Below, in pieces: positions 2,750 to 39,713 of a stretch of 64,000 nucleotides of DNA. This DNA comes from Rhizophagus irregularis (taxonomy: Eukaryota): assembly GCF_026210795.1 (NCBI RefSeq), contig NC_089432.1:5208001-5272000 (forward strand). The letters run 5' to 3'. The notes under the pieces were generated by a model that was not told the DNA's origin, did no database searches, and saw nothing but the letters and a program-made list of their open reading frames with translations. The translations under genes and the position numbers were made by a program. Every line of letters starts with the position of its first letter. Positions within the stretch are counted from its first letter, which is position 1.

Positions 2750-3694
2750 TTAATAGCGAAACAAACCTATTTTCCTATTTTTCTTTTGATACTTTTTCTT
2801 ATAATATTTATCCTTTTTCCTACGTCCTTTTTTATTATATTTTGCAAGAATTTTAGCATAAACTTGTTGTGCTAAAAGGTACACTCTTTCCTTAACATAA
2901 TTTTCTCGTTTTTCTATAATTGTTTGTTCTTTTATATCAACAAACTTATCATGTAAAATTGAGAAATTTTTAATTTGTTTATCAATATCTGCAAGAGGTA
3001 CCCTATTGCCTATCATATTATTTATAAAAACAAATCTATTACATTGAGCTAAAAAATTATCAAATTGATCATTAATATTTTCAAAAAGTCTTGGAGGTTC
3101 ATATTTTGATTCAATAAGTATATAATTAGAAATTTCCAAATATTTGTTTTTAATACCATTACTTTTAGGAAACTTATGATCTGGTTCAGAAATAATCTGA
3201 CAAGAACCATTTACTTGTCGATTATTAAAGGATAATTTATCAGGAATTTCATAATTTATAAAATCATTAGTTAAACTTTCATGATTTTTAGAACCACTTG
3301 CAGGAGTTTCAGAGTTTAAAGGACTATTAGCGTGAGTTTCATATTTTATAGATACACCGCAATTATTGCCAGTAGGAGTTCTTAGAAAATTTTCAGGAGG
3401 TTTAAATTTTCTAAAACCGCTGACTTGATCTTGTTTTCTCGAACTAGTGCTTCCATTTTGTTCTTGATTATCATAGGAAAATTTATCTTCATCAATACTG
3501 ACAAGATTTTCATATTTTCTAGTATACTCTTTTAAAAAGTTGGAAAGTCCATTAAATTGGTGGTTCATTTTTTTTTCTACGTATTGAGTCGTCAAAAAGT
3601 CGATGTATATATTTGATATCATGTTGTACAATAAATTATTTACGCTGATTACGCCAATTACGTGATTAGTCTGATTTCGGTGATTATTACTCAT
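2750..3694 (-). CDS. Intronless orphan protein (314 aa; true start may be the downstream MNHQF), basic C-terminus
   Basis: 945-bp open frame in very AT-rich DNA; no recognisable domain; followed by a 3' block sharing motifs with other loci in the window. Confidence 0.6.
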   Translation of the reverse strand: MSNNHRNQTNHVIGVISVNNLLYNMISNIYIDFLTTQYVEKKMNHQFNGLSNFLKEYTRKYENLVSIDEDKFSYDNQEQNGSTSSRKQDQVSGFRKFKPPENFLRTPTGNNCGVSIKYETHANSPLNSETPASGSKNHESLTNDFINYEIPDKLSFNNRQVNGSCQIISEPDHKFPKSNGIKNKYLEISNYILIESKYEPPRLFENINDQFDNFLAQCNRFVFINNMIGNRVPLADIDKQIKNFSILHDKFVDIKEQTIIEKRENYVKERVYLLAQQVYAKILAKYNKKGRRKKDKYYKKKYQKKNRKIGLFRY

Positions 3695-4350
3695 TACTTA
3701 TTGATTGCTAGTCCCGTGATGTAACAATTATGTGATTTAATATGTAATTTGATTATAGGAACGCGAAGTATATTTTTTTTTCGTTCTGCCTGTCTAAATT
3801 ATTAATATAAAACTGAAGCAATAAATTATCAACGTTAACCTTTTCTTCACGACACAAATAAAGGTTATAATTATCGGAAAATTTGGACACTTACCATAAA
3901 GGTTAAAATAAAATAAAATATACAAATCGCGTCTCATACAAACAAACCAGATTTACTTTAAGCGGACCTTGATATTATGCACATGCGCAAAATTTTATGC
4001 ATGATCATATGATCAATAATCATGAGCCAGTCATTTCTTCATGACGCGATTTTTGATTTTTTTATACTCTGACTATAGCAAACTCCGTGGAAAAAAAAAC
4101 TTTTGCATGACATTTTAAATTTATATAAGATGCCTCTCCATCCGAAAATTTTTTTTAAAAAAAATTCCATCCTTCTCTTCTCCCTCTTTCCAGTATTACA
4201 CCCATAGTAACCTATCTTTTTATTTCTACATCGTAGTTTTCTTATCCTTTTGGCGTTTCAAACACTACGCAAAGCCACGAAAGATATTTTTCAAAGTTTC
4301 TCTCTTAAAAATTATTTTATTTTTATTTAACTTTATTTTGTTTATATATA

Positions 4351-4790
4351 AGATACCTCACTCACACACTTTAGTGTGGTATAAGCCTTGCTATAAGTAA
4401 ACTCGTTCTTAGTATGATGTATGGGTGGAAGTAAAAGGAGGTAAGAGACCTGTTCCTTACTGTTAACACACGCGTCATCTCAGGATACCGAATCATTATA
4501 ATTTAATGGTTAAATTATAATGAGGGTGCCGCAAAATCTTCTCTTACACGGCAGGACCATGATAAGGATCCTCATACGCATACTTTATTGGAGGTTGGAG
4601 GAAAGTATGTTAAGTGGGGGTGGTTGTATCTGATTGGCGGTCCCTAATAAGGGTGACGTTAAATTCCTTAATTCCTATTCATTTTCTTGATAAACTATTT
4701 TATGAATTTCCTTTTGCTAATTAATCGTTACAGTGATCCGTGTTACTCATACATCGGTGCTCTTTAATTTTATAGGTATTCTCAGTCAAT
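4351..4790 (+). ncRNA. Candidate large structured non-coding RNA (copy A)
   Basis: Nested helices: 4416-28/4743-55, 4430-40/4708-18, 4441-48/4540-47, 4493-4506/4510-23, 4569-75/4614-20, 4578-86/4602-10, 4554-58/4639-43. Their non-Watson-Crick pairs are G-U on the + strand. No ORF. Confidence 0.6.
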
Positions 4791-5199
4791 TTCAGATCAA
4801 TAATATGATTGATAAGTCAATAATTTTATTATATTTTAATTTTATTTATTGTTTCTGAAAGCACACAGTTTCAGCATTTTTAGCAAAAGATGTACAGTAT
4901 ATTAATAAAATTGCTAGAGAAAATTTGCTTTGTTCAAGATTCTAAATAAATATACAAAAATAATTTGATAAGTATACTTGATATAATCACTTGAATTTTT
5001 ATATAAATAAATTAAATCGTATAGTCCAAATTATAAATAATTTCTACTATGTTATGAATATAACTCAATATTTTGAGTAATAATTTCATTCTAAAACTAA
5101 AATCAGATAAACTTAGTAAAATGTAAAATTAAACAATTAAATCGAAAAATATTTTATACAGTTAAATTATATTTGGTCGTACTGTACCATTTCCAACAC

Positions 5200-5935
5200 A
5201 AATACATTATCACGAGTATATAGTAAATTAGTACTGTACGGTAATACAAATTAGTACGGACGTTCAAAAAAAAAATTTTAATTTTTCCGTACTCAGACGG
5301 ACCTTTAAAAATAAATTTGATTTTTTCGTACTAATATTTTACATTGTAACATCATGTGATCAAATTTTTGAGATGAATATGTTGTACACAATATTTGAGT
5401 AATATAATAATTGTGTAATGATCAATCTGATTAATTTATGAATTTATATAATGATTTTAACGTTCTATCATCGTAAATATCTCTTTTAATTTTTTACTTC
5501 TTTGCCACATAATACCAAAAATTATATTTTGTAAATGCTAAATATGGTTGTCTAATTTATATATAAAAATATGATAAAGAATTGAAAAAATTAATTATAA
5601 ATAAACTAATAAAATTTAATTATTATTTTAATGGCCAGTTTTATTATTATGGAGCTGAATATATTAAAGGAATGAAAATTTATTAGCTTATCTTCAAAGA
5701 ATTTTTTTAATTTTATAATTTAACATTTAATTTTATAAGATATTTTGTTAAAAACAATATGTCAAAGTTGCACAAAAATACAAAAATGCAAAGTCGTACG
5801 ATTGTACGAAAACTTAAATTAGTACGAAAATTTTAAAACTTTCGTACGTACTAGTACAAAAAAATTGATTAGCTGTAAATGTACGTACGAACAAAAAAAA
5901 CACACGTACGTACCAAGTTGCGTTAGCGTACAGTC
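5200..5935. mobile_element. Degenerate MITE-like element with GTACG subterminal motif clusters
   Basis: GTACG/CGTAC clusters at 5178-5330 and 5793-5930 around an AT core; TIR and TSD not resolved. Confidence 0.3.
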
Positions 5936-7228
5936 ATATTTTACTCAATACCTCATTATCACTCAAGTACTTTCTGGATCAAATCGTCCCCATCAAGTTG
6001 ATCGTTCTAATAAATATGATGTTTTTATGAAAAGAACACTTTTTTTTGCATTAAAACCTTTTTTTTTAAAAAAAAAAAGTATGAATATTTCTCTTTTTTT
6101 TAAATATGGTAAAAAAAGGGTCTTTACATAGTATAAAAAATTTCACTAATTTTTCGCATGTAAAATAATCTTGTTTCTCTTATTAGGTGTATAATGACCG
6201 ACACAACCAAAGTTTCCTAGGGATACAGACATTTGAAACTTTATGGTTATTAATATAGGAAATATAGGCGTTATCTGTCTCGAATGAGTCTAAAGCCTGT
6301 AGGTTGCTCAATACTTTATATGTGTCTTTTTAACAAAATATTTAATAAATTAATAAATATATCATGTACTGTACATAATATGTAACAATCTCTTAACAAG
6401 ATGATCATTGAGAACGGAAATCTTGATTTTTAATTTAATAATGTTAATTTTAATTTTATTTCTATTTTTATTTTACATTAATTAAGTATTAAGCTTAGTC
6501 CCGGGCCCCAAAGTAGAAATTCTGGAATTGTAGTTGTAGAAGCTCTTGCTTGATAGATTAATAACCTAATATAAATTAAATAAAAAAGATTAACATACAA
6601 ATAAATATCTTAAAAATTTATAAATTATTTTTATCAAAATTACTTTTTTACCAGATTTGCATGCCACAAACAAGTTTTTTTGAAGGCTGTTGTAAGGAAA
6701 GGTACCATAATTGAAACCTCATTCGGAATCAATAGACCTTATATCAAGTCCAACAAGAAAGGCTTGAAGTAACAAGAAATACTGGTAAAATAACTATAAT
6801 ACATTTCTAACTACTGTGCTCGGAGACGTATTCGTGTAAACTTTACTGATACTCTTTCAAGTAATTGTCGGCAATACGATCCTTATCTCCAGAACCTTAC
6901 ATAATAAAATAAATAAAAAACTTTTCTGTAACAATAATAAAATAAATGTATTTAAAAATTACAAAATACTTAGCTTATGAATGATATTTTCTTATTAAAC
7001 AATTATACAGGTTTCATAAAAGAGATTTTCATAAAAGAGAGAGTGAAGAAAAATTTTCGCGTATTAATCGTGAGAAAAAAAATTTATCCACATGATTCAC
7101 ATGACTATCAATATTGACTATTACCTTGTTATAATTGTTTATATAATCAGCTAGGCACAAAAATATGAGTACCGTAAATCACAGTTCACGAAATATATAT
7201 ATATATTTTTTTTCTGATATATATAAAC

Positions 7229-8080
7229 TAGTGCTCCGCAAAATTCGGGTCTAACCCGGATAATTCAATCCGAGTAAATTTTAAATCGGGTCGGTACTAA
7301 CAATTTTAATAACCCGTGACCCGCATGACCCGACCCGTCAGGTCGGGTCATTCATTTCCTTGACTCGAGTTTTGACCCGAATTAGACCCGGATGATCATT
7401 AAAATCACTGATCACATATCGATTACGCATTAATATTGATTACGTTATATAATTTTGTTAGATAAATGTATGAGGTAGTATATCCTCACTTAGCGAAAAT
7501 TGCTAGAGACACCTCGCAATTTTGGGTATGTGTATGAATTATTATTTTAATTATTAACATTACATTAACTAATAAGTTGATTTTGATGATTAATAAAGCA
7601 ACCAGCATTCCAATAGTTTCCAGTTGAACCGATTTGATAGCTGCAATCTTAAAGCAGATAGAATTAGAGCATGCATGTGTTTAAAGTCCTGGCAGATATA
7701 AAGTATAGTCAAATTTCTGTTAAAGCAAGTGATATAATTTCGATTTTATAGTTCAAATATAAAGCAATAAATAAACAGGAAATTGAAGATATCTTTAAAT
7801 TCGTGCTTAGCTTTAGTTTTAATAACAAAAAGTTGTGTAACCTATATGATCATCTTGTAGATCAATTACCTTGAGTTATTGAAAAAATTATATTTGAAAA
7901 AATATTTTTGATATATTACTAAGCATACAGTATATTATCCAATGAAAATTTCGGGTCTAACCCGGGTTATTCGAATTAAATATACTCGGGTCGGGTTAAA
8001 ATCGGATCATTTCTATTTTTGCCGGGTCGAGTCGGATATATTCTCCAAACCCGACCGAATCCGACCCGGTAGGAGCACTA
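7229..8080 (+). mobile_element. Non-autonomous hAT element with remnant of the transposase dimerisation domain
   Basis: TIR TAGTGCTCC/GGAGCACTA; 8-bp TSD ATATAAAC (7221-7228, 8081-8088); CCCGA/TCGGG subterminal repeats; relic YPHLAKIARD-LAI (7481) and IRACMCLKSW (7663-7692). Confidence 0.92.
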
Positions 8081-8959
8081 ATATAAACTAAATATATATA
8101 ATATAGACGCAAGTTTATAAGTCATCTTTTTATTGCTTCAATTTGTCAACTTATTAATAAGAGCATTAAATAGCATTATTAAGTACCCAAGAATTATTAC
8201 TTATTTTGTCATTATGATTTATGAATAGTTAATCAAAAATGGCAAGTGATAAAGAAACACATTTTTGATTTCATTCAATCAAAAAAAAAACATGTACGAA
8301 AGAATTTAATTTTGACGTTCTTTTGAGAGTAAAGAATATAACAAGTTAGGAGTAAATGATTACAGGTATGTTCTAATATTGTATAAATAAACCATAGTTC
8401 AACTTTATAACACTTTTTTTTTATGATTTTAATCCTCAAAATAAATGTATAATTATTTTGTCATCACAGCAACCATTTTTTAACGAACTGATAAGAATTG
8501 AAATGTTTTAGAGTCCTAATATAATATTTTAGTCTTGCAAAACCTTTTTGTGAATTTCTATTTATAAACATTTATTTTAAATATTTTATATTATAGGTTA
8601 TCAGTATGGATTCTTTCCATTAAAGAAATCGAATTATGACAAAAATTCAAGATACAGTAGATGACCATATTTTTAATTCCAGTCAAATCTAGTTATTATC
8701 AATGAAGTCACATGCAGTTTAATATTTATCTTGCTTTGTTGAAGACTTTAAGAAAACTTTGATTTGAAGATTAGAGTTTTTTAGTTTCTTTATCAGATTA
8801 ATTACTAGGAAAACGGAAACCGTTGAGGGTCCGTCGTTTAAAGTGATAAAATGTCTAAAAATAAAGCGTTAAAAAAAATGTGATACAAAACATAAAAGGA
8901 AATAAGCAGGGGTTAAATTATAGTGACGTAGGTGGAAGGAAGGAAAAATACATGGGATA

Positions 8960-9185
8960 AACCGGTACTACAAATTTATCTAGTTCTGTACAATAAATAG
9001 TCATTTGCTACGCTCTTGACAATAACGTTTTCAATTCCTTTAGATACAGTATGTTTTCTTTCAACACAAGAAAAGTTATCACAGGAAGAGAGGAAGCGTT
9101 TGACATATAGGTTGGATAAAAAAAAAGAATGTTGTTATATCATATGACTGTTTTATATACTAGGAAGCAGCGAAAAAAGATAAAC
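8960..9185 (-). ncRNA. Conserved block of the dispersed motif family (copy C), no adjacent ORF
   Basis: Collinear blocks shared with 34014-34243: TCTGTAC, CTACGCT, AGAT-C-GTAT-TTT-CTTTCAAC-CAAG, GTT-TA-CATATGA, CGAAAAAAGA. Confidence 0.6.
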
Positions 9186-9339
9186 CTCGATTTTATTGGA
9201 TGACGTAACGTCGTCACATTAGGAGATAGGATGATCGATCATTTTTCATAATGTGTAGAGCTGTAGACATATATAATCTCCGGACAATAATTATGCTGAA
9301 ATGTGATTAAAAAATGAAGTAACAGGAAATATATTTTCT

Positions 9340-9575
9340 AGTAGTTAAATTAAAAAATTATATTCATTAAAAAAAATTAGTTTTTTTTGTGAACATTCCG
9401 CAAATCTGCAACTATTCTGCAATCCCGCAAATATTCTGCAATTGAATCGCGGTACTTTAGATATTTGTGGATTTGTGGAATATTTGTGAGATTGCGGATA
9501 ATTGCAAGTTGCGGTTCTGCAGATTTTAGATTTGCAAAAGTCCAAATTTTTACTTACGTAAAAGTTCAACTGGGA
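9340..9575. mobile_element. Degenerate small element with inverted CCGCAA/TTGCGG motif arrays
   Basis: CCGCAA/CTGCAA on the left, TTGCGG/TTGCAA on the right, ending CAACTGGG; left terminus not recognisable. Confidence 0.3.
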
Positions 9576-9807
9576 GTGTTTCTGTTTATTTTTATGTTTT
9601 TATAATAAATTTTTTTTATTAATACAAAAATATGTAATTTATAATTACACAAATGAATAATATTTAATTCTTTCATAAAAAAAACATATGCTACAAGCAA
9701 TCATAAAAATGTATAAATATTAAAATTTCTCTAAAAGTTAAAGGTTACAACGTCTTTATGCACACAAATATATTGTTATTTCTAATCATTATGACAAATA
9801 ATATTAT

Positions 9808-11217
9808 CTATATATCCTTTACGATATCTGGCCATGTAATTTCATGATTCCAAAAATCATCATCATAATAATTACATTCAATTATACCTTCTATTTTATA
9901 TTTTTTAATAAAATTATGCACTTCAACAAAACGATGATATAAATGCAAAGTTTTTTTACCTTTACAATTCCAATTATTAAAAAATAATTTTAAAGATTCT
10001 TTATTAAAATACCTAAATCGATCAATGTGAATTTTGTATAAAGGGAGTGGTGCCAATTCAATCAACAAATCCAGAAATTTATCACGATATTTTTCCAAAA
10101 TTAACTCATCTATATCTATTGCTACCAAGTATTGACACTTGATGAAAATATTCTTTAATTCTTCCAAAGTTTCATCTCTGTTTAAAAATACTGTTGCATA
10201 TTTTATATTTGGACAATATCTGTAGATTGTCTGATTATATTCTTTTGCTTGATCATAACTAGGAATTCTAATTTTAATTTTCCAAAGATTTCCATTGGTA
10301 TTTTGTATAATATTAATTACAATATAAAGTGATATTTTATATAACTCAAGTATTTGAAGTTTATAATAACTTGCATCCATTGCGTATTCCTCAAATTTTT
10401 TAATTGGTTCATAATTATTAATATTATCCCCATTACGTATTCTTATGAATTGTAAATTTGTTAATTTTGGAAAGAGAAAATATAAAAAAGATGTATACTT
10501 AGTTGATACCAAATAAATAATTGAATTTACATGTTTTTCTAAAGCCTGAGCAATCTTTTGGCATTCACAATATCCTTCTATATATAAGTATTTAATATGT
10601 TTTTGCATTTCAATTAATTCAACAATTCCAGAAAGATCATAATCATCAAGTTCTATATAAAGTTTTTCTATTGATCTACATATTTGTGCCAATTCATGAT
10701 AAAAATTTTGTTCTCTTATATTACAATATAATTCATATAAATTTGAAAGAGAAATATTTGCTCCTGGATATTGAAATATTGGATAATATATCATATTTAA
10801 ACTTAAACATTTTATAGAACATTCACTAATAAAAAGTTTATAAATTTCTTTCTTTAATATTGAATCATTTGGTAAAACCTTATGAATATCATTAAGATTT
10901 TTACAAAATTTAATATAATTAAATGAAAGTTTTTGCTTTTGAAAATTTGATTTGATGATATAATTATTTTTCAAAAGTTTAATTGAATTATCTGATAAAT
11001 GTGAAATGATAATATTAAAAAATAATTCTTTTTTACAAATATATTTATATGGAGAACTCCATAATATTGGTATCATAATTTCACACCAAAGTTTATTAAC
11101 TAATAAACAATAAAATAGAGATTTTCTATATTTTTTGTTATTGTTTAAATTCATATTAGTGAAATCAATTAGATCTTGAAAAATATAAAAAATGATGTCC
11201 CTATTTAATTTTGACAT
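9808..11217 (-). CDS. F-box domain / LRR-like protein (expanded Glomeromycotina family), 469 aa
   Basis: MSKLNRDIIFYIF...SLFYCLLVNKLWCEIMIPILWSSP F-box signature followed by LRR-like repeats; intact single exon. Confidence 0.9.
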   Translation of the reverse strand: MSKLNRDIIFYIFQDLIDFTNMNLNNNKKYRKSLFYCLLVNKLWCEIMIPILWSSPYKYICKKELFFNIIISHLSDNSIKLLKNNYIIKSNFQKQKLSFNYIKFCKNLNDIHKVLPNDSILKKEIYKLFISECSIKCLSLNMIYYPIFQYPGANISLSNLYELYCNIREQNFYHELAQICRSIEKLYIELDDYDLSGIVELIEMQKHIKYLYIEGYCECQKIAQALEKHVNSIIYLVSTKYTSFLYFLFPKLTNLQFIRIRNGDNINNYEPIKKFEEYAMDASYYKLQILELYKISLYIVINIIQNTNGNLWKIKIRIPSYDQAKEYNQTIYRYCPNIKYATVFLNRDETLEELKNIFIKCQYLVAIDIDELILEKYRDKFLDLLIELAPLPLYKIHIDRFRYFNKESLKLFFNNWNCKGKKTLHLYHRFVEVHNFIKKYKIEGIIECNYYDDDFWNHEITWPDIVKDI

Positions 11218-11599
11218 CTTTTTTTTTTTAGTAAAGAAAATTTACCAATAGTTGAATGCATGATTAATGTATTTTATATAAAAAACATAAAATGTAATGA
11301 ATCTAACACAACTGTAGACCAAATCTGAATATAAATGTAAAAACCAAATATAATGAAACTTGAAAAATTAGTCAAACTGATAAGAATGATCTAGCACAAA
11401 TAATAGTCTAATAATGGCGTATTAGATTATATATAATTAGTTTATATGAATGTGGAATTATCTATGGATAAAAATTACTCATGTGATATATAAATTGTCA
11501 TATCAGCAGTCATATAAAAAAAATTCACCTCAAAATGACCAACATAGTTTTTCGCACTGGATCACGTGCAAGTGCTAGCAAACCATTTATTTTATAATA

Positions 11600-12470
11600 T
11601 TCATTAAAAAAAAAAATAATTAATTTACAAATTTATTAAAATTGTAATAAATTTTCCAGTAAATTTTTATGAAAAGAAAAAAAGATCTCTAACGAAATTC
11701 TTTATTATTTCAAACCAAAATTCTCAATTCCCTCATTAAAAAAATTATTTTCAATAAAATTTTCTATTAAGACTTTCCAAACTAAATTCAAAAAAAGACT
11801 CACCTATAAAAAACTTTTCAACTAACAAAATTATCAAAAAATATCTCCTATTAAAGAAATAATTTCTAACGAAAATCTTTCATCAAAAAAAAAAACAAAT
11901 TTCCTATATAAAAAAAAATTCAAAAAAAAATTTTTACCCATTAAAATAAATCTCAAAAGAATTTCCATATCAAAAAAACTTTCCTTCTATTAAAAAGAAA
12001 ATTCTTTACCGAAATTTTCTATCAAGTTAAAAAATTTACTAACGAAATGATCTATTCAAAAAATATTTTTACCCATTAAAAAAAATTCTCAAAGAAATTC
12101 TTTAAAGAAATTATCTACCAAGAAAAAAAATACCTCTATTAAAAAAGAAATTCCTCTATTAATAAAAAAAATTTACTACCGAAATTTTTTATTAAAAAAA
12201 AAATTTTTCTATTAAAAAAAATGTTCCAAAGAAATCCTATCAAAAAAAAAGCTTTACCTATTAAAAAAAAATCTATCAAAAAATTTTATTTTATAATAAA
12301 AAATAGAAAAAAAATTCTCCACGAAAAATTTTCTATAAATAAAATTTAAAACAAAAAATTTTTAACTAAAAACCTGCTGACAATTTTCTGCCGCCGATCT
12401 GTCAGCAACTCAGTTCTGATTTGTCAACTCGGTGGCAGTCGGTGCTGATCTTTAATTCATGTCACGTAAT
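11600..12470. repeat. A-rich degenerate tandem repeat (AAAT(T/C)TCTATTAAAA-like units) ending in a GC-richer terminal block
   Basis: Many CTATTAAAA/CTATCAAAA units seen directly. Confidence 0.5.
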
Positions 12471-13528
12471 ACATTTTATACATTTTGCATAAATTATACT
12501 GTGTAATCAATCCACACCGGTTTTAAAAACTATTTTACATTATCTTTTTCATTAGGGAGAACTTTGATATAATTATATAGTAATGGCTCACAGTGATGAT
12601 AAAGGTAAAAAGCTTGTAACATGAATATTTAATATAAATTAAATTTAATATTCTAAAACTTTTAATCAAATTGTCAAATAGCGTCAAGGTAAATACGTTT
12701 CTCAAATTTCGATTCTAAAATTTGATTTTCGATTAATCATTTCTAATCAATTGTGCATCATTAAATTTGTGGCAGGAAAATTTCCAATGATCACAAATTT
12801 AACAATATAATCATTTGATTATTGAATTTTATGATTTCGCATTTAAAATTGCACGAATAATCAGGGATCGGCAGTAACTCTGGCCAAGCTTATAATTCCG
12901 GCCAGAATTAAAACTTTAGTGTGACACAAATCACAATTCAAAATTTCGCATTAACGCAAAGATCCAATGTCACGTGATTTATAATTTCGTAATTCTGGCC
13001 AGCACTATAGTTTCGATTTTTTTTTTTATTCGACAATCATTTCGATTCGATTTTGGCAGAATCGATTTCTCAACAAATCAATGGTGATTAAAATAGTTTG
13101 GATTTACAGGTCACATTTTTAAGGAGTTGATCACATGGCTGACTGCAGCTATTTTACGTAACAAACAATATTGCATCATTTTTTTTTTTAATGAAAGATT
13201 GAGCTTCGAAATATGAAGTACAACAGAAGGATATTTAATATGATAATTAGATAATTTATAATTTATGTAAAATCAAAAAATTTTTATTTTTAATGAATAA
13301 GTAAAACTATACACAAATATAATAAATATATTCAAAATTACAAATAAAATTTAAATTACAAAGATATTTTTTTTTATGATACATGTTAATATAAAGAAAT
13401 TTAATAAAAATAATAGCGCCAGGCCATTTTGTAATGAATAGTAGCTACGTCATTAGGGTTAAAATTGGTCTTCATAGGTTTTGCCATGTAATAACCAAAA
13501 TCGTAAAGTCGTTGAAAGAATTTTCCAT

Positions 13529-13630
13529 TTACATTATAGAACATGAGTTTGTAGGATTACCATCAGGGTTTTCAGTTATTTCGGAAGCAACAATAACAAT
13601 TGGTTTAAAGGTAATAGTTGTTGGATTCAT
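13529..13630 (-). CDS. Putative farnesylated (CAAX) lipopeptide pheromone precursor, 33 aa: MNPTTITFKPIVIVASEITENPDGNPTNSCSIM
   Basis: Manual translation; CSIM directly before the stop; AAAA before ATG; A/C-rich leader; TATAAATA box ~140 bp upstream; decayed paralog at 14.5 kb. Confidence 0.75.
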   Translation of the reverse strand: MNPTTITFKPIVIVASEITENPDGNPTNSCSIM

Positions 13631-13767
13631 TTTTGATTGAGTTTACTTGAGAAAAAATCTTGAGAATTTGATATTTGTTTGATTTCTTTGATTAATTTGA
13701 TTAATTGATTTTTTTTGTTCTTTGAACTCTTTTCTTTTGATGGGATTTTACAAGGAGAAGCCAAGCG

Positions 13768-13920
13768 TATTTATAATAAATCAAACAAACAAAATTTTAG
13801 GCTTTTAAAATATCTATTATCATCATAGAAAATTGGAATTTTACATACTTTACATTGTTTTCTTATTATTTCCTCCCCCCATGCATTGTATTGTTTTGTT
13901 TTTGATATTCTCCCTTTATG
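13768..13920 (-). promoter_or_regulatory. TATA box and HMG-box-like sites upstream of the CAAX peptide gene
   Basis: TATTTATA on + at 13768-13775; CATTGTT 13853, CATTGTATTGTTTTGTT 13884-13900, TCCCTTTAT 13911. Confidence 0.4.
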
Positions 13921-14487
13921 TTTCAAAATTGTTCAGGTCATATCGGGTATATCCTTTTTAGAAATTATTTAAAGATTGGTATAAATCTATTATCTGTTAT
14001 AGTAATAATATTCATGCGTTACATTAGCCACAAATAAATCGACCGCTGCACAAATTAATATTCTTCGTTAGAAAACATTTTTAGGATTTTTTAAATTTAA
14101 CTTTATTTGTAAATGTTTGTGCATAATTTGAAACTAATATTCTTTCATTGTCACGATACATCTCGCTGTGTGATAACGATAATAATTTATCTATAATATA
14201 TTTAAATTAAATTTTACAAACTGAAATTCTATTATTTTCATATATTATAATAATATGTTCAAATATATTCAATAATTTTTTTTTTTGTTAATTGATATTC
14301 TGACGCTATGTAAAAGTGAAAATCATAATACTTTTGGTTAAGCAGCTTAAGACAATATTTATTTGAGATAACGTACAATAAAATGAAAAAATAAATTTCC
14401 ATCGGATAAGTTATTCCAGCAGCAAGAAAATTTAAAATCTTCATTATAACGCTAAGTCAATGTAAATAAATTTCATAGTATTAGTGT

Positions 14488-14578
14488 TTAATATTATATA
14501 AACATTAATTTGTAGAATTAATGTTATTTCAAAAGCAACAATCGTTACTAGCTTGACAGTGATGATTGTTTGATTAAT
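14488..14578 (-). pseudogene. Decayed paralog of the CAAX peptide gene
   Basis: (ATT)NQTIITVKLVTIVAFEIT-[deletion]-NSTN*C aligns to MNPTTITFKPIVIVASEIT...NPTNSC; the 5' flank is also similar. Confidence 0.7.
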
Positions 14579-17017
14579 TTTGATTGTTGTTTGAACAATT
14601 TTTAAAAATGAGTTAATTGACTTTTTTGTTTTTATTTGAGAAGGAATTGATTTATTATTATTATTCGATTAGGGACTTACAAGTATTACAAATATTACGT
14701 AATATTCAGTTTAATAGCTTATCTAATATAAGCTTACCCCTTGTTAATTACGTAATATGTGTAAGTCTTATTGATTATCATAACTTCTTAACAATGATTC
14801 TTATTTATCTATAGCTTATTTCTCTCTGTGTAAATCTTCCCCTTAACGTCCATTTTTAGAATGTATGTGATAATAGGGTGTAAAATATCACGTGATTGCT
14901 AATCATTGTTTTGTACCTTTTATACACAAAAAGAAAAGTGCGTTCTAGATCCAGATTGTATCACTTACGTGGATTTTTTACAGAAAATTGTGTAGCAGGT
15001 AGTACTCAAATGACAATACATTCGTAAGGATTTTATTCCTGATATAAAGTTATTTATAAACAAATAAATAAATATTATTCTTGAAAATTTTCATAAAATA
15101 TTTGCAAATTAAAAAAGGGTTGTAAAAAAAAAAATGACGTGCAGTAGTTGTCTTTTCCTAACTTGATAATAAACAAAATATTTTGGCGGACCTAAATACT
15201 AGAAAATTATAATTATGAGCTGGTTTCATATTTTTAATTAACCAATTTGATCAATAATTGGCATCCGATTTATATTTTGTATAACATTTGTAAAAAAAAC
15301 TTCCAATTTAATTGTTCATTCTATCGTATGCAATACCCTTATAGGTGTTGTAACTCAATAAAAACCTATCAATTTATTCCAAAGTTAATTTTGAAAAATA
15401 ATGGATTCAATTTTTATTTTAATCAAGTCGTAATAAGGCATATGATTACATGGCGCGCACTAATTTATCTCAATGAAGTAAAATATTAATATTATTAGAG
15501 CTCAAAGAATTATATGTTCGTTTATCAATACGTATGTATAAAACATATTTTTTATTTATTTAATGTATTCATTTCTACGAGATGGACACTTTTAGTTTCA
15601 AGAAATCTTATGAATTCGCCCGTCATTTTAAATATTAGCAGCGTCTTATTAATTATGTGGAGATTACTTTGATAATTCATTATAATCTTAAACCTCAGGA
15701 TAAAATGATCTTAAGAGAATTAAATAAAATATAACAATCACCTTTAAGTCGAAAATAAAGTGAATCCATTTCTATTTTTCTGGAATCAATCAAGAAACTT
15801 TAACTGGCATATAGATCTTTACCAAATAATTTAGTTGCTCAATTTAATTTTTTTTTTTTTAAAAATTAGTAACGTGCGTGCTTATTAATTATGATTTATC
15901 AAGAAAGAAACATAATTATACAAACACCTAGAAAATAATATAAATAAATTATATTATCATTTATTTTATGCAGACATACAATAATCCATATATGATCATA
16001 CGATAATTTAAGTTAGTAGAATAAAAAAATAAAACAATCACTTAAAATAAACTTATTTATACATTTATATAAATTTTTTAAACTTTTATATAATAAACTT
16101 TTTTTAATCTTTTATCATATAATTTTTTTTTAAAACTAATACATAAACTTTTAAACTTTTTTGACTCTCAATATGAACTAAAAAAAGCTAAACGATAATA
16201 TAATTATTATATGTGATATACTTAACAATAGGATAAAATGGCTGCCAATGATGCTTGTTGTTTTGTTGATTTTCTTGGAGTTTTGTGTGTTTTTAAAAAT
16301 TTCCAAGCAATGTTTATATCCTTTTCTAGATACATTTTGATAACTTCTTTTCTTCTCGTTAAATATCGCTATGTAAACTAATTTCTTATCTATATTCGCT
16401 CATCGTTGCTAATCCCATCTCTCTGCACAGTACTTGTTCATAACGTATATGTCAGTCAATTACCTACCATTTATATTTTCATCAATAGTTAATCAGCGTA
16501 CAATATTGAAACGATAAATATTTACTTGAGATATCTGCATGCTGCAATATTCATTGTAAAGTTTCATTTATAGATCAATCAACTAAATTTCTATTATTCA
16601 TGAATTAATTTCTAGCAGTAAGAGTAAAAGAAAGAGTTTAATTAATAAATACAGTAGTTCTATGTAAACATGATCTGCGTTAACATTTGATGTTACCTCG
16701 TGACATTATAAACCAATATAAATACAACACTATAAAGTACAGTACGTATTAAATTGCACTGACATAGTACAGTACAATTTCCAACGGTCCATTGATATAT
16801 TAAATAACATCCAAAGATTATTAACTAGCGGATCTAAAATTTATTGAGATTTCCTTTGATTAAATTCGCATTTATTCACTCGTTTTATTCATAAGAAATT
16901 AATAATATAATGATATTCTTTATTACATCTTTCAAAATCTAATTGACTTAATTAATACCAACCTAAATAATAAATAAAATATAGTGTCAGCCAAACTTTA
17001 GTCTGAACTGTTGCACT

Positions 17018-36715: not shown

Positions 36716-39713
36716 ATGGAAAATGATAACACTCCACAGGTTAGTCAATTGCGCACATTTTTTTTTTGTGAAATACTACTGAAATACTATTGAAAGTGCT
36801 TAAAAAAAATTAATTTGGGGTAAACGGCATATGGTATAGAGTTTTAATAGCGTTAATTTCTTAACAATTAACATCAATAGCATTATTTATTAGTTAGATA
36901 GCGTTAAATGTACATTATTTATTAGTTAGGTGACGTTAAATAGCGTTAGATATATATTAATTAACGTCACAAAGCATTATATTATTGCGCATTAATTTAT
37001 TGGTATTAAATAGCATTACTTTAATGTGCTTAACAGCTAACTTATTTATTAATCTATTAAATAGCAAGAAATTGAAACTGAAGTTGAAATTCCCGTAGAA
37101 ATTATTCTTGGTTCAGAATTAGAAAGTCTTGACTCTACAAATTATCCTTCATTAACACATCCTATAGAATTATCTGTTAATTCAAAATTTAGTTCGTGGG
37201 AAATTGCTGAACATTATCTAAAGGAATATGGAAGGCAAAAGGGATTTGTAGTTAATAAATACCGAGTTGAATATATTCAATTATCAAACTCAACTGTTCA
37301 AATTCCCAGAAGAAGAACATTTGCTTGTGAATATGCTGGAAAGTACAAACCTAACTATAAGTCTAAGCAAATTGATCAACAACGTAATAAAGGGTCAAAA
37401 AAAACTGATTGTAAATGGCGGGTTCACTTGAGTAAAACTATAAATAATAATTTCATTCATGTAACGTCTATCCATCTTGAACACAACCACAAAATACTTG
37501 CTGATAATACACAATTTGCTACAACATTCCGAAAATTTAATCAATCTATAATGAATGAAATTGAACATGCAGTTATACATGGACGTTGTGATGCATATAC
37601 TATAAGAAATCTATTACAACCATTATTTCCTGACCAGCTTTTTCTTACACAAGATCTTTCAAATGCAATTCAAAAAATTAAACGTGAAAAAAAAATAGCT
37701 GGAACAGATGCTTCTCATTTGTTAAAATTTCTCCTTGAACGACAAAAAGAAGAACCTATGATGTTTGTTCAACCTTTAATAAATGCGGATAGTGATAGAC
37801 TGTGTGGTATATTTTGGATGACGGAAAATCAAATTATTTTGTGGACGCGTTATTCAGATGTTATTTTACACGATAATACCTCTAGAACTAATAGATATAA
37901 CTGTCCATTATCTCTATTTATACTTGTTGATAATGATGGTAAATCACGTTTAGGAGCACAAGCTTTTTTAAATGATGAAACTCAGGAAAGTTATGAGTGG
38001 ATTTTACAACAAACGCTAAATGCAACAGGAATTGAACCAAAAGTTATAATCACTGATATGGATCCTGCAATGGATGTGGCATGTCAAACTACGTACAAAA
38101 ATGCGTATCACATACATTGCATTTGGCATATGACCTAAAATTTACCTAAACGTCTCAAAAATAAACTTGGTGCTGCAGATTTTAAGATATTTTTTCATGA
38201 TTTTTGGAAAACTCGCAATTCACTATGTGCAGAGGTTTTTGAACAACGATTTCAAGCTTTATTAAATAACTTTCCCAGTGGCAGTGATTATTTACATGAC
38301 CCAATATATTCAACACGCCATTCATGGGCACGAGCATTTACAAACAGAATATTTACAGCTGGTATACAGTCAACACAGCGTGTGGAGTCAATAAATGCCA
38401 TTATTCATAAAGTTGTTAATTCTAGCTCTACAATGGCAGAAGTAGCTGAGGCATTAGATTCTCGAATGCAAAAAGAAGAAATAAACAAGAATTTTATAGC
38501 ATGGAAATACAAATCAACAATATATCATCAGCCATTTGTTGTGGAAAATTTTTTTAGTAACGTTAATAATATAGTTCAAAAATATTTTTCACCAAGAATT
38601 GTTGGGGAAATACATAAACAAATGTGCGAATCAATAATTTACAAATGTGAAAAACTAGATATTAAAGATGCATTTGAGTTTATTGAGGATCAACTGGTGA
38701 GTAAAAAATTAAAATTATAGTAGAATGATATAATAAATGTTTAACTAGTACTATTATGTATATATTTTTAGGATCAAAATGAAATTCCCGAAAATCAAGA
38801 AAGCCAAGGAACGTCAAATGATCAAGAAGAAACCAATAATATTGAAGATTATTACGATTTTCGCCAGACATACTTAAAATCATTGTTAAATTCAGTACCA
38901 AAAGAAATGATTAAAGAAGTATGGCGTATCATTCCATATATGGTGCCAAGTTCATATCAGCATATTATTATTCTTAACGATGGAACCCATTTATGTACAT
39001 GCTTGTTATTGGTTTCATATGGAATTATTTGTCGTCATTATTTTAAATTAATGATTGAAAATCCAAACGCATTATTCCATATAATGCTAATGCCAACAAG
39101 ATGGCTTCTGGATGACGCTTGGAATCACATTGACTCTATTTTTAATGAAGCTTTTATCGGAACATCATCTAAAAATTTAAAGCCAATTCATGATGATAAT
39201 ATTGATCAAAGGATTTATCTTAATCCTAGGCATATTAATCACGTTCAAGAAGTAGAAATTTGTTATTATACACAAAAAAAAGTAGATTATGGTCGAATTA
39301 TGGGACATTTTAAGAAAGCACTAAACTATTCATTTGATAATAACGATCAAAAAAATTTAGATGATATTATACTAGCTTACATTGCGGAAAAAGAAACTAT
39401 TATGACTCAATTAGAAAGGGGAAATGTTCTTAAAGACAATAATACAAATAATCAATTAAAGTTGTCTGATGGTCGTACATATGATGTAGATGATATTGGA
39501 AATCCATTAAAACGTCAAGGAAAAGGGAGACCTGCTACTAAGCGATTAAAAGCTTGTAATGAACAAAAAAATAAGGCGAGTACGACACAAAAATCACAAA
39601 AAGAGAATGTACTATATGAAGAAAATATTGAAAATTCAAATGGGCGTAAATGTGGTTTGTGTCATAAAATGGGTCATTATGCTCCCAAGTGTCCCAATAA
39701 GAAAAACGTATAA
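36716..39713 (+). pseudogene. FAR1/MULE transposase with SWIM and CCHC knuckle; exons 36716-36739, 37065-38696, 38772-39713; one premature TAA at 38136-38138
   Basis: FAR1 DNA-binding domain (SKKTDCKW), MULE DDE core (HDNTSRTN, IITDMD, HCIWH, TQRVES), CTC...CRH SWIM, CGLCHKMGHYAPKC. Confidence 0.9.

Follow-up and report, generated by a model that had tools for sequence, protein, structure and literature searches.

The window analysed here, a 64,000-nucleotide stretch of Rhizophagus irregularis contig NC_089432.1, is AT-rich fungal DNA with open reading frames (ORFs) of Sel1, kinase, and MULE/FAR1 type. An ORF at 2750–3694 (−), divergent from the element described below, encodes a 314-aa orphan with a very basic C-terminus, for which a Pfam search returned no family above cut-off. 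Its named relatives are restricted to Rhizophagus (the genus is named in six of nine matches), the R. diaphanus relative has 87% identity, and a few paralogous pieces occur in sequencing run X7. Elsewhere in the window, the MULE/FAR1 transposase at 37065–39713 (+) is broken by a stop at 38136–38138. By eye, 7228–8080 has inverted ends (CTAGTGCTCC near 7229, GGAGCACTA near 8062) and many GACCCG/CGGGTC words, and looks like a small non-autonomous DNA transposon. GTACG/CGTAC words cluster on both strands at 5160–5340 and 5780–5935 (by eye), possibly the subterminal repeats of a decayed transposon. A CCGCAA/TTGCGG cluster at 9390–9540, just downstream of a 469-aa ORF (9808–11217), is probably another small repeat (by eye), and a short tandem repeat with a 9-bp period lies at 497–564.

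The element itself lies outside any protein-coding gene. A sequence-only reading had described it as an ORF-free RNA of ~430 nt with a multi-branched fold; no ORF of 80 aa overlaps it, and the spliced form of the window copy would hold a 15-codon ORF. Its parts and the DNA upstream are as follows.

3970–4110, no strand: promoter-like block rich in ApT motifs, between ORF 2750–3694 (−) and the element; several paralogous copies
4122–4128, +: TATATAA, which may be the TATA box for the host transcript; a TATA-like word stands at the matching place in one paralog
4345–4351, +: second TATATAA, then AG at 4351–52; putative alternative 3′ splice site or second promoter
4353–4440, +: leader, putative non-coding 5′ exon; diverges among copies clearly more than the core
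4415–4428, +: leader strand of the outer helix, covering the branch-like site; pairs with 4743–4756; poorly retained in the listed paralog variants
4430–4440, +: last 11 nt before the donor, an exon-binding-like contact; pairs with core loop 4708–4718
4441–4775, +: conserved multicopy core (4439–4765) and its 3′ tail, together a putative spliceosomal intron of 335 nt and 37% GC
4441–4446, +: consensus-type 5′ splice donor, AG/GTAAGA, at the 5′ edge of conservation
4443–4764, +: P0 (4443–4450/4756–4764), which closes the core on itself; no substitutions among those listed
4457–4736, +: Pa (4457–4467/4727–4736), 10 bp with a bulge at 4463; the first pseudoknot of the sequence-only reading
4472–4659, +: Pb (4472–4480/4651–4659), 9 bp; the second pseudoknot of that reading; no substitutions among those listed
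4493–4523, +: perfect 14-bp AU-rich hairpin (4493–4506/4510–23); no substitutions among those listed
4553–4644, +: variable domain, a long hairpin in the window copy, shortened or replaced in paralogs
4746–4750, +: putative branch site, a branch-point-like CTCAT that sits in a small 3′ hairpin loop and precedes the acceptor by 26 nt
4773–4775, +: candidate 3′ acceptor, TAG/G, after a U-rich tract, assigned by sequence

The 5′ limit of the leader (4353) is taken from the length of an RNA-library record in run X15. Upstream, the 3970–4110 block contains five CATG words against 0.31 expected, and its summed depth in X7 is 697–1582 against ~240 in the flank; 6mA at ApT has been found in genes and promoters (PMC8298701). 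The block may act as a promoter. The TATATAA at 4122 that had been proposed as part of the promoter is present, and its TATA block is retained by a paralog; the surrounding upstream DNA (3900–4250) is also several-copy. A short, imperfect direct repeat (4121–4137 and 4344–4360, ~223 nt apart, by eye) contains the two TATATAA boxes and may mark an old promoter duplication.

Part of 4150–4900 was present in 20 of 24 listed runs, and seven of these were compared, two DNA-type (X1, X7) and five RNA; the comparison left out X20 (share 0.04) and 12 further runs, of DNA or unknown type, with the element. Summed contig depth over 4400–4750 was 154–602 in X1 against a flank of 37.6 (4–16×) and 3861–16,582 in X7 against ~240 (16–69×), with one 180-nt X7 contig at a depth of 3031 alone; such sums overcount and are not a copy number, and we read them as a family of several to tens of copies. 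Record 2 of X1 joins 4400–4455, with eight differing letters, to 2174 other letters, and the copies are therefore dispersed. Their upstream flanks are related to each other, while the two 3′ flanks observed are unrelated. The variable domain is shortened in one paralog, which retains the base of the hairpin (by eye), and is replaced by 558 unaligned letters in X16 record 3 and by ~1130 in X1 record 3. What these long forms have in common with the window copy is limited to the 5′ half or to the 3′ end. At 4549, where the window copy has C, all X1 and X7 depth shows T; the window letter is therefore private or an error.

Conservation has defined edges. Alignments of X15 and of X1 record 4 begin at 4439, where conservation falls sharply at the donor despite a homologous leader: the X15 copy differs at 9 of 320 core letters, its adjacent leader fails alignment at 80%, and its letters before 4439 resemble leader 4409–4438 by eye. 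The 7-mer AGGTAAG occurs twice in the 64 kb, both strands counted together (four expected). At the other end, TAG/G lies no more than 10 nt past the core edge at 4765 in the window copy, and X16 record 5, which has an unrelated 3′ flank, carries TAG then G within 6–7 letters of 4765. Four host introns identified by eye are 73–120 nt long, one at 11% GC, against 335 nt and 37% GC for the candidate. A GT stands directly 3′ of the candidate acceptor (4776); 4776–4869 could be a second host-sized intron, or the GT could be a back-splicing donor. The element is a multicopy family bounded by splice signals, a property that a reading from the letters alone could not reveal. It is real, unannotated, and probably transcribed.

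That reading had proposed a single RNA closed by 4416–28/4743–55 (13 bp with 3 G–U, 14 bp when extended) and 4430–40/4708–18 (11 bp), with possible crossing pairings at 4457–67/4727–36 (10 bp, one bulge required at 4463) and 4472–80/4651–59 (9 bp). All of these pairings, and the perfect 14-bp hairpin, exist as described. Their arrangement fared less well, with a conserved unit of 4439–4765 and closing helices that are poorly kept among copies. The helices said to close its two inner domains have pair probabilities of 0.19 and ≤0.01. Crossing depends on the model: Pb is nested within the minimum-energy fold (pair probability 0.68–0.69), and Pa is an ordinary nested helix (~0.6) when the leader is absent, crossing only if 4430–40/4708–18 forms.

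The global folding energy of the region and of the core is no better than that of shuffles, a result that the sequence-only reading had itself named as counting against it (4351–4790: z −0.87 on + and −0.57 on −; 4416–4755: −1.82 and −1.71; conserved core: −0.42, or 0.0 with the 3′ tail). Its argument that the G–U bias on + implies RNA-level selection is weak and survives only in the count of long stems: stems of at least 13 bp number three on + against one on −, and three such stems were matched in 0 of 200 shuffles of 4411–4760 and 1 of 200 of 4351–4790, but energy z values are equal on the two strands.

In isolation the core folds into a structure closed by P0 (probability 0.68–0.93), and this closure coincides with both edges of conservation. 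The core fold leaves 4710–26 and 4744–50 open (4710–4718 unpaired 73–97%, 4744–4750 unpaired 62–95%), and these are the loops paired by the leader. The two closing helices of the sequence-only reading are leader-to-core pairings into loops of the core fold. The pairing of leader 4415–4428 with 4743–4756 (−17.2 kcal/mol) was equalled in 4 of 500 shuffles; that of 4430–4440 with 4708–4718 (−12.7 kcal/mol), which reaches the last base before the donor, was equalled in none of 500, and 36 of 2761 other 11-mers in the window pair equally well with 4708–4718. Leader–core pairing beats shuffles in the window copy and is partial in X15 (by eye). In the window copy, the fold has an energy of −92.2 kcal/mol with the leader bound and −73.9 kcal/mol without it, a difference of 18 kcal/mol in favour of the former. 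The most plausible view of the helices is that they reflect two states of the leader and the core, the latter bounded by splice sites.

The 13 core substitutions listed all lie outside the 82 sites that make up P0, Pa, Pb, and the 14-bp hairpin, where 3.3 would be expected (P = 0.022, post hoc); four leader rows at 4419–4425 were counted apart, and four rows at 4620–4625, read as one deletion and one insertion, were left out. A further 14 substitution rows and 23 indel rows, together with some differences in individual records, lie outside this set. The commonest paralog change, T4463A, carried by 11 X7 contigs, falls on the Pa bulge (U or A). C4573T and C4583T in the variable hairpin retain pairing as U–G, and G4704A and T4709C break one core-fold helix. 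No two-sided compensatory change occurs among the listed substitutions. Under the fold of the sequence-only reading, four of six paired-site changes retain pairing against 56% expected for transitions, which is no better than chance. The four leader substitutions would break the outer helix if their partners are unchanged, and the X15 copy retains only ~5 and 6+2 pairs of the two closing helices (by eye).

The core was present in all five RNA runs compared, from five studies and mostly at 95%–99% identity; strand, ends, and level are not readable from these contigs, which may be DNA carry-over, likeliest for a high-copy repeat. Four of the seven RNA records lie wholly within 4441–4775 (starts at 4443, 4445, 4455, and 4567). 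Two of them, the contigs of X17 and X18, end at 4443 and 4445 with no loose ends, at places where the DNA runs continue, which is a weak hint. The other three records extend beyond the splice sites (X15 record 2, X16 records 3 and 5). Assembled RNA contigs, which come from copies with other flanks, contained no spliced joint. The flanks and ORF 2750–3694 were uncovered in the RNA runs save for one spurious 36-nt X15 match, and this was not weighed as evidence because the RNA copies have other flanks. A haplotype with C4583T and T4588A occurred in four of the five RNA runs and in neither DNA run compared (X1, X7). X15 record 2 (430 letters) is circularly permuted, with 4738–4765 followed by 83 unaligned letters, the last 30 of which resemble the leader by eye, and then 4439–4758; it implies a 408-nt unit of core plus leader and is the only permuted record of the seven, from one run. 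Transcription, which the sequence-only reading had assumed, is upheld to the extent that all five RNA runs contain the core, but their contigs could be DNA and show no spliced joint.

We tentatively interpret the element as a member of a Rhizophagus family, apparently multicopy, in which the core of ~330 nt may be a structured, introner-like spliceosomal intron that is released as a stable RNA, a reading to which we give somewhat less than even weight. It is favoured because the 5′ edge of conservation is AG/GTAAGA, TAG/G lies past the 3′ edge, the core self-closes, and the core is present in RNA libraries. Against it stand the related upstream flanks among copies, unlike introner-like elements in unrelated genes, and the ~83 non-core letters in the circularly permuted X15 record, for which neither a plain lariat nor an intron circle accounts. 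The permuted contig fits an intron badly unless it is artefactual, derives from a tandem array, or represents a circle made by back-splicing that still contains the intron.

The analysis shows a conserved core with splice-type ends, helices that can form, occurrence in RNA libraries, and raised DNA depth; splicing, stability, and mobility are inferred. A TATA promoter near 4122 would drive a Pol II transcript without a useful ORF. In this precursor the last 25 nt of the leader would pair with two core loops, one pairing covering the branch site. Splicing at 4440/4441 and 4775/4776 would let the core refold, and the excised core may then close its own ends (P0) around the branch point, slowing debranching and decay. 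Copies would multiply partly by DNA duplication together with the promoter and partly by RNA-mediated re-insertion, as proposed for fungal introner-like elements, in which case leader–core pairing might act as target recognition during re-insertion.

Introner-like elements are long, structured, high-copy introns (PMC3609843; reviewed in PMC11282704), and spliceosomal retrohoming has been proposed, not shown, for those of fungi (PMC3609843, PMC11146597). The element shares with them the donor AG/GTAAGA (4439–46), CTCAT (4746–50), a U-rich tract, and TAG/G (4773–76) at the sequence level, as well as many near-identical copies and a predicted structure. It is likewise longer than regular introns (335 vs 73–120 nt in four host introns by eye); introner-like elements are described as ~2× regular intron length (PMC3609843), and the element is 3–4.5× that of the host introns. 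It differs in its swappable internal domain, its pairing with the 5′ flank, and its presence in RNA libraries. The introner-like test of a structure with compensatory changes gave z −0.42, 0 of 13 changes in the four helices, and no two-sided change. Introner-like elements sit in unrelated genes, whereas the window copy lies outside a coding gene and its upstream flank has relatives; we do not file the element as an introner-like element because the unrelated-genes test failed. Excised introns can persist in linear or circular form (PMC11146597), but those come from ordinary genes and the element is a conserved, multicopy, structured family. The element also differs from stable intron circles in that its one circular contig includes flank. 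A bioRxiv study (10.1101/426049) reportedly deals with stable intronic RNAs and intron circles made by the spliceosome.

A lesser and rather doubtful possibility is that the family consists of multicopy genes encoding a stand-alone RNA of ~410 nt (about 4356–4765), linear or circular, with the fold of the sequence-only reading and an outline like that of RNase P/MRP RNA; a circle could arise by back-splicing from AG 4351–52 to a donor just past 4765. The greater stability of the leader-bound fold in the window copy, the TATA block retained in paralogs, and the absence of a run of five T between 4340 and 4876 all fit such an RNA, as does the 408-nt unit implied by X15, since a back-spliced exon of 4353–4775 would be 423 nt. 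The leader-bound helix order also mimics P1, P2, P3, a crossing one-bulge P4, and a variable distal domain, as described for RNase P/MRP RNA in PMC2996960. But the outer helices are poorly retained in X15 and in the listed paralog variants, some copies carry at least 558 unrelated letters mid-element, and the permuted contig is one record from one run that may be a tandem array or a library artefact. RNase P/MRP identity was rejected: consensus CR-I and CR-V patterns are unmatched at the crossing helix, Rfam gives no match, the bulge letter varies (U or A), the outer helices are unconserved, and there are many copies.

It is unlikely that the family is a non-autonomous DNA repeat, for instance an internally deleted derivative of a longer element, with an incidental fold and with RNA contigs that stem from read-through or DNA carry-over. 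Folding energies equal to shuffles agree with this, as do long forms with similarity restricted to the 5′ half or the 3′ end, RNA-library contigs that may be DNA, and a genome of which 24% is unclassified repeat (PMC8647823). Such a repeat does not account for the sharp fall of conservation at the donor beside a homologous leader, for substitutions that avoid four helices (P = 0.022), for three long stems on + against one on −, for non-random leader–core pairing, or for a shortened paralog that retains the base of its variable hairpin (by eye).

Still less probable is a selfish RNA resembling retrozymes, which would be cut by a ribozyme of undescribed class into a ~410-nt circle and reverse-transcribed into new loci. 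Retrozymes are non-coding, have dozens or more genomic copies, and form RNA circles of a few hundred bases (PMC7761336). The element is also non-coding and multicopy, with high DNA depth, dispersed copies, and one circularly permuted RNA record, and one haplotype in four of five RNA runs and neither of two DNA runs is expected if few copies are active (PMC7761336). Several copies share upstream promoter-like DNA, whereas retrozymes are described as promoterless (PMC7761336). The window copy has no paired terminal repeats: tandem ribozyme copies or LTRs were absent among the best 20 of at least 60 direct-repeat families, and the window holds no terminal direct repeat or second copy. Rfam found no ribozyme, the consensus hammerhead core pattern was absent from both strands of 4300–4900, and consensus hairpin and twister patterns were also absent. 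Hatchet ribozymes have C20–A22 after P1, U28–G31 after P2, G63–G66, and nested P1–P4 (PMC6561176); 4737–39 and 4473–76 lack the required residues by eye, and Rfam gave no match. Pistol and HDV ribozymes, with hairpin and twister, were dropped partly by eye on consensus patterns.

Group II introns bind exons through EBS–IBS pairing and retrohome. The core loops of the element likewise pair with the end of the 5′ flank as far as the junction, and the element too exists both with a large insert (long forms) and without one (short forms), but its ends are GU–AG; Rfam found no group II domain V or VI, a consensus domain V pattern is absent, and no reverse transcriptase was seen in the 30 letters read of each long insert. 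It is very improbable that the element is a nuclear mobile intron between group II and spliceosomal introns, which would have GU–AG ends, borrow the spliceosome, read the last 25 target-exon bases with its loops, reverse splice, and draw a protein from the long-form insert.

Other identities found no support; the sequence-only reading had likewise noted no clear RNase P/MRP, SRP, U snRNA, group I/II, or hammerhead consensus. Rfam gave nothing across the whole window at gathering thresholds and nothing credible locally at E up to 10; sucA (E 0.52–1.5) and U6atac at 4094–4177 (E 0.16) are far below threshold. The m1 and m2 motifs of snR30 belong to its 3′ hairpin and precede the ACA box by 7 nt (PMC2664660). 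An snR30/U17 H/ACA RNA was rejected: there is no m1 at one mismatch, and an m2-like word at 4692, which differs in most copies, has its next ACA 31 nt away. The R. irregularis telomere repeat is TTAGGG (PMC10234402), and no 1.5-repeat TTAGGG template was found at one mismatch on either strand of 4100–4900, which argues against telomerase RNA. For a group I intron, Rfam found none, and with consensus patterns the S element was absent at two mismatches and R-like words were unpaired with it. C/D snoRNA was rejected on C and D words altered in paralogs, and SRP RNA was considered and dropped. A small peptide across the splice junction loses its frame in X15 (by eye). A mitochondrial origin fits poorly with the dispersed flanks, which are of nuclear type. 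No tRNA was found, an A box is absent, B-box words occur only with one mismatch, and a sigma-70 scan was at chance level and irrelevant. Pattern scans gave one metagenome locus (a chance match in a bacterial ORF), no matches in two scans of genome contigs, and 0, 1, and 0 in viral contigs, the single match being two collinear short matches in phage-like coding DNA without the other helices (by eye). Plasmid and phage BLAST returned only matches of 34–47 nt (E 0.1–0.4).

Searches of full-text literature turned up no published description of the family; it may exist in supplements or repeat libraries as an unclassified repeat. The element bears on the open question of how new spliceosomal introns originate. 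Even under the alternative explanations, it would be an RNA family, so far unannotated, in a major plant symbiont whose genome is one-quarter unclassified repeat. If the intron interpretation is true, spliceosomal retrohoming could be tested on a young, multicopy, structured GU–AG element able to pair with its own 5′ flank, by comparing filled and empty sites across many Rhizophagus assemblies.
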